From Candidatus Omnitrophota bacterium (lineage in GTDB: Bacteria > Omnitrophota > Gorgyraeia > Velamenicoccales > JABMQK01), in contig JBHPGU010000013.1 of the NCBI GenBank assembly GCA_042570265.1, positions 20,435 to 52,434 on the forward strand: a stretch of 32,000 bases of DNA, written 5' to 3'. Below are positions 10,286 to 10,969 of the stretch, piece by piece; positions within the stretch are counted from its first letter, which is position 1, and every line of letters starts with the position of its first letter. The notes beneath the pieces were generated by a model. The model was given only the letters and a program-made list of their open reading frames with translations. It made no database searches and was not told the DNA's origin. The position numbers and the translations under genes were made by a program.

Positions 10286-10691
10286 GGGGGTGAAAGGTTT
10301 CGACTTAAGGCAATCATGTAAGTGGAGCATGTAGAGGTGCAAGGAGGCCTCTTTAAACACCTTGCATAAAATAAACGCAAACGTTAATCGTTTAGCGCAA
10401 GCTCCTTTAGCTGTAAGTACGTCTTTCGTACCTGCAGTTGCTGGAGTACCAGTCTTCAGCCTCCAATAAGGCTGAAGCCGCTGTTTGCCTAGCCTGAGAG
10501 GTAAATGGTGCTTTCATCAGGATAGTTTCCAAGCCTGCCTTTGGCTTGGAGGCGAATTTTTAAAAGGATAGTCAATTCTTAATCCTGTCTGTTGGAGTAA
10601 GAGTAGGCGAATCTAAACAATAGACTAAACATGTAGTTGCTGCTTATGAGATTCTTTAAGGACGCGGGTTCGACTCCCGCCACCTCCACCA
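10286..10691 (+). ncRNA. ssrA: tmRNA (SsrA)
   Basis: The 5' end GGGGGTGAAAGGTTTCGAC pairs with the 3' end CACCTCC-A-CCA, with the G3:U wobble that serves as the Ala identity element. T-arm GCGGGTTCGACTCCCGC. Candidate resume codon GCA at 10377. Sits directly downstream of smpB. Confidence 0.9.
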
Positions 10692-10719
10692 TTCATTTCA
10701 TTAATGAAATGAATGGTGG
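10686..10719. repeat. Perfect 34-nt palindrome that includes the tmRNA CCACCA terminus (possible bidirectional terminator or processing hairpin)
   Basis: CCACCATTCATTTCATTAATGAAATGAATGGTGG is its own reverse complement. Its left arm is the last 6 nt of ssrA. Confidence 0.6.
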
Positions 10720-10908
10720 ATGCCGAACTAATGTAGTTCGGCGCCTAACCGAATTGTAAATTAATAAAAGGTTTGGTGGATGCTGAAACAATGTGTTTCA
10801 GCGCCTAGCCGATTTGGTGGATGCCGAACTAATGTAGTTCGGCGCCTAACCGAACTAGTAATTAATGAAATGAATGGTGGATCCGCCAATTTGTTTTACA
10901 AATTGGCG
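10714..10908 (+). repeat. Tandem array of four hairpin modules (TGGTGGAT box plus 9-10 bp stem)
   Basis: Module A 10714-10753 and module C 10815-10854 are identical (TGGTGGATGCCGAACTAATGTAGTTCGGCGCCTAACCGAA). Module B 10774-10812 has stem GCTGAAACA/TGTTTCAGC. Module D 10875-10908 has stem CGCCAATTTG/CAAATTGGCG. A truncated GGATGCCGAA box lies at 10941-10950. Confidence 0.8.
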
Positions 10909-10969
10909 AGATCTCGTCATCCCGCCAAAGGTGGAATGACGGATGCCGAAATAGATTAAGGAGGACGGT

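Follow-up and report, generated by a model that had tools for sequence, protein, structure and literature searches.

We analysed a 32,000-nt stretch of DNA from a Candidatus Omnitrophota bacterium (contig JBHPGU010000013.1; "the window" hereafter), in which ssrA, the gene of transfer-messenger RNA (tmRNA), is followed directly by a tandem array of hairpins. The array belongs to a lineage-specific hairpin family of an Omnitrophota subclade that is anchored on the 3' ends of alanine-acceptor RNAs. All the genes of the 32-kb window are housekeeping genes, and the G-rich plus strand carries every one of them. Every close homologue of the SmpB protein encoded in the window comes from Omnitrophota, one of them being 100% identical (P0001, a Candidatus Omnitrophota metagenome-assembled genome). 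The features of the locus are listed here, with reference to L007, a related locus; locus numbers beginning with L are our own.

9768-10226, plus strand: smpB, upstream of ssrA (Pfam SmpB).
10286-10691, plus strand: ssrA (tmRNA), identified by ARAGORN and by Rfam (RF00023, 190 bits).
10685-10720, plus strand: hairpin 1 (H1), a perfect 36-nt palindrome (18 + 18 nt, 100% complementary).
10714-10752, plus strand: module A, with box TGGTGGAT, a 9-bp stem GCCGAACTA/TAGTTCGGC and loop ATG (10722-10742), and tail GCCTAACCGA.
10753-10773, plus strand: spacer that contains the right half of H1 in degenerate form (ATTAATAAAAGGTT) and aligns with the spacer of L007.
10774-10812, plus strand: module B, with box TGGTGGAT, stem GCTGAAACA/TGTTTCAGC, loop ATG and tail GCCTAGCCGA.
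10815-10853, plus strand: module C, an exact duplicate of module A (101-nt period, 88%).
10861-10908, plus strand: copy of the right half of H1 (ATTAATGAAATGAA), followed by module D.
10875-10908, plus strand: module D, with box TGGTGGAT and a perfect 11-bp hairpin of unrelated stem, CGCCAATTTGT/ACAAATTGGCG, at 10884-10908.
10915-10941, plus strand: extra hairpin (CGTCATCCCGCCAAAGGTGGAATGACG), seen in the fold; no counterpart in L007.
10937-10953, plus strand: truncated fifth module (TGACGGATGCCGAAATA) overlapping the extra hairpin, a motif match with two mismatches at 10937; no counterpart in L007.
10958-11320, plus strand: ribosome-binding site AAGGAGG and a small lipoprotein-like open reading frame (ORF; 10970-11320).

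The element is anchored on the last 7 nt of the tmRNA, TCCACCA (the equivalent of U70-A76). In the window H1 reads TCCACCA-TTCA-TTTCATTAATGAAA-TGAA-TGGTGGA, and its right end, TGGTGGA(T), starts the first direct-repeat module. The original prediction for this locus had described a perfect palindrome of 34 nt (10686-10719) at the tmRNA end; the palindrome is indeed perfect, but it spans 36 nt, T70 being included. The four direct-repeat modules that it proposed, each with a box and a hairpin, were borne out by the sequence. Modules A and C are identical over 41 nt rather than 40, module B differs from module A at three stem positions, every one of which is compensated, and module D has a different but again perfect stem. 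The orthologue of module A in L007 is the first module there; the two differ by one stem change, also compensated. The stem type of module B was found again in L007 and L008.

A chance origin of the array is excluded. The box TGGTGGAT occurs five times in the window, against 0.64 expected from shuffled sequence, and TGGTGGATGCYGAA, with up to 2 mismatches, four times against 0.31. Perfect hairpins with an arm length of 10 nt or more number only four in the 32 kb, and two of these belong to the array. The predicted folding energy of the array region was -141 kcal/mol (z = -11) for the plus strand, and the minus strand folded equally well. No further copies were found elsewhere in the window.

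A narrow scan of a genome collection, with a pattern demanding the window-specific tail GCGCCTARCCGA, returned six loci. Five of these (L002-L006) were chance matches in unrelated phyla; the only real one, L001, carries the same palindrome and module behind a tRNA-Ala(GGC) gene. The contig of L001 (CAZFPS010000020.1) is labelled "uncultured Planctomycetia", yet its element is of the Omnitrophota type, with tail GCCTAACCGA, and the label may be wrong. A scan of metagenomes with the module alone yielded 49 loci, nearly all of them with the match lying 22 nt past the 3' end of a tmRNA gene or of a tRNA-Ala gene (GGC, CGC or TGC), and always in the orientation of that gene. According to Rfam, the tRNA-Ala(TGC) genes carrying the element sit in the 16S-tRNAIle-tRNAAla-23S spacer of rRNA operons. 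Within the DNA sampled, an anchored hairpin was present at 19 of 21 distinct complete tmRNA genes and at 16 of 18 distinct complete tRNA-Ala genes (GGC, CGC, TGC; 14 by a strict criterion, with L033 and L053, which have 2-3 mismatches, added by eye), against 2 of 33 genes for other tRNAs (Leu, Ile, Pro, Arg, His). The two positive genes in this last group have a looser version, in which CCA and TGG alone overlap. Related hairpins that include CCA alone lie at a tRNA-Ile gene in L045 (504-609; GACAAG loop) and a tRNA-His gene in L056 (about 1090-1128). The L045 spacer also holds a full unit with the boxes TCCCTAA/TTAGGGA in place of TCCACCA/TGGTGGA.

These associations were also seen in loci retrieved independently of the motif, through SmpB (L007, L008, L060-63 and L068) or through a radical-SAM neighbour (L070/72). 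The element is present at ssrA in L007, L008, L060/61, L062/63 and L068, the last being the complete genome of Velamenicoccus archaeovorus, and at tRNA-Ala(CGC) in L070/72. It is absent from ssrA in L009 and L065/66 and from tRNA-Ala(CGC) in L069 and L073. The order smpB-ssrA-array-ORF is maintained in relatives. The element is thus specific to alanine-acceptor ends in general, and not to ssrA alone.

We considered whether the motif could be a generic, scattered REP element, or the array an assembly artefact, two outcomes that the original prediction had named as its refutation. In about 405 kb of loci together with the window, covariance-model matches were confined to arrays next to tmRNA or tRNA-Ala genes or to mirrored units 5' of tRNA-Ala genes, and 95 of 104 hairpins of the form N8-ATG-N8' lay within arrays. 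Membership of the REP, BIME or REPIN families was rejected, as the copies are not dispersed within this DNA, the palindromes are perfect, and the repeats are direct and in one orientation instead of forming inverted doublets. Of the suggested REP/MITE-like family seeded at ssrA, only a modified, target-specific form survives. The layout recurs in independent NCBI, JGI, ENA and Logan assemblies and is therefore not an artefact of assembly. Viral contigs contained no match (0 for either hairpin pattern), indicating that the element is not phage-borne.

Comparison of the loci gave a canonical unit, which runs from the gene end ...cTCCACCA through n4-TTTCATTAATGAAA-n'4 to the box TGGTGGAT, then through a hairpin (9-bp stem, loop ATG, 9-bp stem) to GCCACCA, ATCCACCA or ATCT.... 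H1 is perfect (18/18) in about 40 of some 45 distinct loci, although n4 is highly variable; its core has the variants TTTTATTAATAAAA, TTCCATTAATGGAA and a GACAAG loop. It starts at U70 in every case and includes the last 4-7 nt of the RNA; the spacer measures 22 nt in nearly all loci and 21-23 nt in variants with other loops. Hairpin 2 (H2) abuts H1. In many loci, and in Velamenicoccus, H2 terminates in a second (C)TCCACCA, so that the TGGTGG box can pair with an upstream or a downstream copy. The conserved core of the family is the first palindrome, H1, and not the modules, and the distal modules are duplicates with a fast turnover. CAAATTG-loop palindromes in L031, L060 and L062, which resembled module D, were set aside as unrelated, lying inside what reads as ORF6N-type coding sequence.

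Covariation of the stems in homologous loci had been set beforehand as the test of selection on structure, and it was strongly apparent. In an alignment of 43 distinct first units (25 pairs, 1075 cells), 99.3% of the cells were paired, and both sides had changed in 15 of the 25 pairs. The covariation score was 0.452, compared with 0.131 after shuffling (0 of 500 shuffles reached 0.452) and 0.05-0.09 with slid partners. H2 stems were partly constrained by the search pattern, whereas H1 was absent from all patterns, and its covariation is therefore not an effect of ascertainment. The tRNA-Ala gene of L070, which does not encode CCA, is instructive in this respect: its palindrome reads TCCAAAA...TTTTGGA, with the length of 36 nt and the start at U70 both kept. 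That the box changed alongside the gene end indicates that this otherwise invariant box really tracks the gene end. The sharing of 4-nt inner stems between tmRNA and tRNA-Ala units, tried as a sign of recent copying, was dropped because 43 units of biased composition are expected to share such stems by chance.

Such perfection might have a trivial origin: template-switch (quasi-palindrome) correction of the DNA could keep a functionless hairpin perfect and extend it into an immutable gene end, while slippage between the repeated boxes would generate the tandem arrays. The arms are indeed nearly free of mismatches and have no excess of G:U, they co-vary even for the change of CCA to AAA and of TGG to TTT, and exact tandem duplications are present in L035 and L070; the looser, CCA-only hairpins behind one tRNA-Ile and one tRNA-His gene also fit. 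What is left unexplained is that the same box, 7-nt overlap, spacing and H2 are found at four unrelated gene types, and that unpaired proximal spacers are conserved while the distal array cannot be aligned. Experience from E. coli genetics is that long perfect palindromes are unstable; in the absence of selection they would be expected to disappear. We regard a mere by-product of DNA mechanics as improbable.

The contrast between proximal and distal parts emerged from comparison of the window with L007. Identity was 80% over the smpB 3' end, 86% over the tmRNA, 89% over H1 and modules A and B with their spacer, and 28% (unalignable) over the distal array; internal changes in the proximal stems were compensated. 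An identity exceeding that of the tmRNA, combined with compensated changes, points to host-level purifying selection on the proximal units, whereas the distal units appear to turn over. Between L060 and L062, H1 is identical and the modules differ in number and kind, and exact tandem copies were observed in L035 and L070. The distal units are tandem duplicates in decay.

We propose, with a probability of about 0.4, that the element serves as a co-transcribed 3' trailer, covering the acceptor end and marking where double-strand processing or insulation takes place. According to this proposal, the array would be transcribed as the 3' trailer of the stable RNA, and in the precursor H1 would form at the expense of the upper acceptor stem, as an "anti-acceptor". 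An endonuclease of the RNase III type, specific for double strands, would then cut within the perfect H1 duplex of 16-18 bp and so free the stable RNA from whatever is co-transcribed behind it (mRNA or 23S precursor). The box would be released from the mature end with the help of H2 and its CCACCA, and H2 would leave the downstream RNA with a hairpin-capped 5' end. In the predicted thermodynamic fold of pre-tmRNA, H1 is formed and the acceptor stem is not, so that the trailer would mask U70-A76 until its removal. A constant 11 nt separate the dyad of the H1 duplex from the mature 3' end, and from this geometry and the perfection of the duplex we infer an RNase III-type cut.

Several features suggest that the array is part of a transcript. 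The element is located between tRNA-Ala and 23S inside rRNA operons. Hairpin-plus-U-tract terminators are found past the arrays in L060, L062, L014 and L068; in the V. archaeovorus genome (CP019384.1), tmRNA, H1, H2 and the terminator fall within 402,697-403,260. Downstream ORFs often start 10-25 nt past the array without a promoter-like site, and ORFs abut the array likewise in L013, L042 and L044. In the window, the lipoprotein-like ORF begins 17 nt past the array, again with no promoter-like site between, and is probably co-transcribed with it. The outgroup L065 has an ordinary terminator hairpin at the corresponding place.

One possibility is that the element is itself a terminator or attenuator for ssrA and tRNA-Ala, since it occupies the position of the classical terminator of L065 and its hairpins are strong. 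Yet no U-tract or T-run follows H1 or the modules. The placement within rRNA operons, the classical terminators beyond the arrays and the abutting ORFs without promoters of their own are likewise difficult to reconcile with termination, which we hold to be very improbable. The suggestion in the original prediction of a structured ssrA 3' trailer for processing or termination is therefore best supported in its first half; its second half is not supported.

A second suggestion made there, an array of small RNAs transcribed from the minus strand with tRNA-like ends (hairpin-AUCCACCA), found no support. Each module does read as a hairpin followed by ATCCACCA and a tmRNA-like flank on the minus strand, and this strand folds as well as the plus strand. 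The minus strand has no promoter-like site, however, the orientation is always tied to that of the RNA gene, and in rRNA operons such RNAs would be antisense to pre-rRNA. Moreover, a 9-bp hairpin followed by 8 unpaired nucleotides is not a minihelix ending in NCCA. Among the explanations considered, this one is the hardest to credit.

Several observations weigh against the trailer proposal. The stems contain almost no G:U pairs (about 4 G:U cells of 1075; in module stems, 564 Watson-Crick pairs, 5 G:T and 4 A:C), and both strands fold equally well, so that nothing singles out RNA of the plus strand. The balance of G:U and A:C, tried as a sign of the RNA strand, showed no asymmetry (5 versus 4) and did not discriminate. 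The perfection of the stems could result from quasi-palindrome correction at the level of DNA. E. coli RNase III usually requires a duplex of about 12 bp to one side of its cleavage site; the proposed cut has 9 bp above it and 7 bp below, which is short for an enzyme of that type. Cleavage at the same distance from the dyad (11 nt) would produce an AAA end instead of CCA in L070. The element is not essential, since relatives do without it at ssrA (L009, L065) or at tRNA-Ala (L069, L073). The proposal does not account for the restriction to alanine, tRNA-Ile also ending in CCACCA. Finally, the mirrored 5' units at some tRNA-Ala genes and the nested insertions resemble mobile DNA.

A different possibility is that the unit is a non-autonomous mobile hairpin, guided by base-pairing and acting on single-stranded DNA in the manner of IS200/IS605 or REP-RAYT elements. 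The TGGTGGA just 5' of the hairpin foot would be the guide, pairing with a cleavage or target site TCCACCA, which sits 22 nt upstream (the RNA gene end) and again just 3' of H2, often 2 nt downstream, a layout compatible with that of miniature IS200/IS605 derivatives (PATEs). The unit would be excised and inserted 3' of CCACCA, and copies would survive only at alanine-acceptor gene ends, where CCACCA is non-coding. The H1 core (TTTCATTAATGAAA) and the types of H2 are common to tmRNA, three tRNA-Ala isoacceptors and an RNA-like region ending in CCACCA (L037/L043). The presence of one core behind at least four unrelated genes means that DNA was copied between loci; the family must have been copied between unrelated loci at some time, which we take as its origin and not its present role.

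Direct CCACCA repeats on both sides of the basic unit also speak for mobility, as do the quick turnover of arrays (L060 versus L062), the exact tandem copies (L035) and the nested insertions (L008 module 2; long hairpin variants). Mirrored units facing outward occur 5' of tRNA-Ala genes; the complement of the 5' end is there similar to the 3' end. The clean "empty site" of L009, the orphan copy of L051 and stems that are perfectly Watson-Crick on both strands fit too, and the G-rich plus strand is the inferred lagging-strand template, where IS200/IS605 elements act. Yet no Y1/HUH transposase, RAYT or integrase was found in the 32-kb window or beside the arrays of L025, L040 and L043, a small sample. 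Orthologous units are 89% identical while neighbouring genes differ by 14-20%, which points to host-level selection; the proximal identity speaks against a selfish PATE with no orthologous conservation, though the L009 site is empty. The tRNA-Ile genes of the L019 and L022 operons end in CCACCA and remain unoccupied, without a box; internal array units lack the left arm expected if whole elements had been inserted after CCACCA; and viral contigs hold no copies. On balance, this main rival of the trailer proposal seems to us rather unlikely.

A combination of the two ideas is unlikely as well. In this version, a geneless hairpin element of about 60 nt was guided by its 7-nt box to home on UCCACCA ends and was then adopted by the host as an "anti-acceptor" switch gating the maturation of tRNA-Ala and tmRNA. 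The target UCCACCA would include the alanine identity base U70, and every alanine-accepting RNA gene would be covered.

Comparison with known systems placed the proposed trailer, in function, closest to processing stems of stable-RNA precursors and, in layout, closest to the ends of IS200/IS605 or REP elements. RNase III processing stems are found in rRNA operons and in the 3' processing of the E. coli 10Sa/tmRNA precursor. As in those stems, a long duplex containing the mature end would lie within a longer transcript and give a 3'-OH end, and some tRNA-Ala genes here have inverted units on both sides, as do 16S and 23S rRNA. Unlike them, the element is a local trailer hairpin of only 16-18 bp instead of a leader-trailer stem, and it forms a repeat family behind genes of one amino-acid identity. 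With the ends of IS200/IS605 elements, PATEs and REP/REPIN sequences it shares short hairpins, a conserved box immediately preceding the hairpin foot and potentially able to recognize a short site upstream and downstream, the absence of terminal inverted repeats, and orientation specificity. It differs from them in a putative pairing of 6-7 Watson-Crick bp rather than the 4-nt guide of IS200/IS605, in stems that are perfect and not imperfect, in the absence of a detected transposase, in being undispersed and restricted to alanine-acceptor gene ends, and in the conservation of orthologous copies.

Two further resemblances were rejected. The RNA box UGGUGGA is complementary to a specific tRNA 3' end, including the discriminator base, in which it recalls the UGGN-NCCA pairing of a T-box antiterminator. 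The element, however, follows the tRNA gene and its pairing would be in cis; it has neither a specifier loop nor an aminoacyl-tRNA synthetase gene behind it; no T-box matched in Rfam at the gathering or the E-value threshold, and the downstream genes are unrelated to alanine. Like the att sites of integrative elements, it is located at a tmRNA or tRNA 3' end and has a short direct repeat of the gene end (CCACCA) downstream. Its main repeat is inverted, though, and the direct repeat measures only 6-8 nt; the "insert" would consist of 60-100 nt of hairpins with neither integrase nor cargo, no integrase is encoded in the window, and the synteny around ssrA is kept. CRISPR arrays and integron attC sites were rejected on anatomy.

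The hairpin family is apparently undescribed, as the original prediction had supposed for the layout. Rfam searches at gathering and permissive thresholds returned the tmRNA and noise only, and no description of a hairpin element anchored on alanine RNAs was found in the literature searched. What sets it apart from known structured trailers and palindromic repeats is its link to a single amino-acid identity. Should the trailer act as a processing signal, the alanine tRNAs and the ribosome-rescue RNA of a whole bacterial lineage would mature along a route unseen in model organisms, through a precursor that hides U70-A76, the bases on which RNase P, the CCA-adding enzyme and alanyl-tRNA synthetase depend. 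As a guided mobile hairpin, the element would instead exemplify the targeting of a unit of only about 60 nt by a 7-nt base-pairing box; guided homing followed by adoption as a switch would make it a new class of base-pair-targeted mobile element and the first cis element common to alanine decoding and ribosome rescue. On any of these readings, the family provides a sharp marker of tmRNA and tRNA-Ala 3' ends for use in Omnitrophota annotation, and a large natural collection of compensatory changes. Velamenicoccus archaeovorus, with a complete genome and an enrichment culture, offers a testable case.

Additional observations concern the RNA genes that carry the element. CCA is encoded in only some tRNA genes (L069 1108-1181, L073 1069-1141, L070 1026-1098; window 4369-4453). 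It is encoded in 15 of the 16 tRNA-Ala genes with the element, and both genes without the element also have no CCA; the CCA of tRNA-Ala may have arrived together with the element. Mirror-image units 5' of tRNA-Ala were identified in L053 (392-463), L019 (2845-2917), L025 (3369-3440) and L059 (9886-9956). Their hairpin includes G1-G3 of the tRNA, and the gene is thus bracketed by inverted units. Several tmRNA genes (L021, L042, L049) have a 5' leader hairpin ending in their first Gs.

In L050 and L058, the carriers are tmRNA genes split in the T-loop by a group I intron (L050, about 590-1240; L058, 1223-1517 on the minus strand, RF00028 with 53 bits in L058). The L050 intron contains a LAGLIDADG-like ORF, as read from its sequence, and a short 3' exon (TCCGCCCACCTCCACCA) precedes the hairpin element. 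The RNA-like region mentioned above (L043 7155-7560 and L037 236-640, both on the minus strand) is a structured stretch of about 330 nt, conserved between the two contigs with compensatory changes. It has a T-arm-like hairpin and GGACCACCA at its end, adjoins a helix-turn-helix gene and is followed by an H1/H2 element; it had no match in Rfam even at E = 1.

Other repeats of gene ends were encountered. The tRNA-Leu(CAG) genes of L021 (about 2700-2792, minus strand), L023 (11925-11990) and L055 (about 2730-2790, minus strand) are followed by their own 3' end in tandem direct copies; in front of each copy stands GGGAGGGA, a sequence complementary to the 3' strand of the acceptor/T-stem (a 29-nt unit in L021). 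One tRNA-Arg gene has a direct repeat of its own 3' end 40 nt downstream. These repeats may represent a related phenomenon or the remains of att sites. L007 has, immediately behind its complete tRNA-Leu gene, a partial second tRNA-Leu(CAG) that begins at the anticodon arm (1921-1990). In L045 (1297-5530), a stretch of only 2.6 kb covers the 23S model from one end to the other, and a group I intron match (50.6 bits) was found at 4621-4873, between the 23S match and 5S; this 23S gene may be fragmented or intron-bearing.

As to the genes beyond the arrays, a 9-kb block of the window (10970-20011) comprises the lipoprotein-like ORF and alpha-amylase, GH57 and GH77 genes, which we read as glycogen metabolism. 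A PCMT methyltransferase gene follows the ssrA array directly in L060 and L062; its homologue in the window starts at 20012, past this block. In L040 the ssrA array is followed at once by an AbiEi/AbiEii toxin-antitoxin pair (648-2278, minus strand); the toxin, AbiEii, is a nucleotidyltransferase of a family that acts on tRNA acceptor ends. Lastly, ARAGORN predicted unusually long tag peptides (26-33 aa) for the tmRNA of the window and for the tmRNA genes of L007-L068. The predicted tags end in ...PVFAN, ...FSLQ or ...VSVH and not in the usual ...LAA, the example from the window being ANVNRLAQAPLAVSTSFVPAVAGVPVFSLQ.

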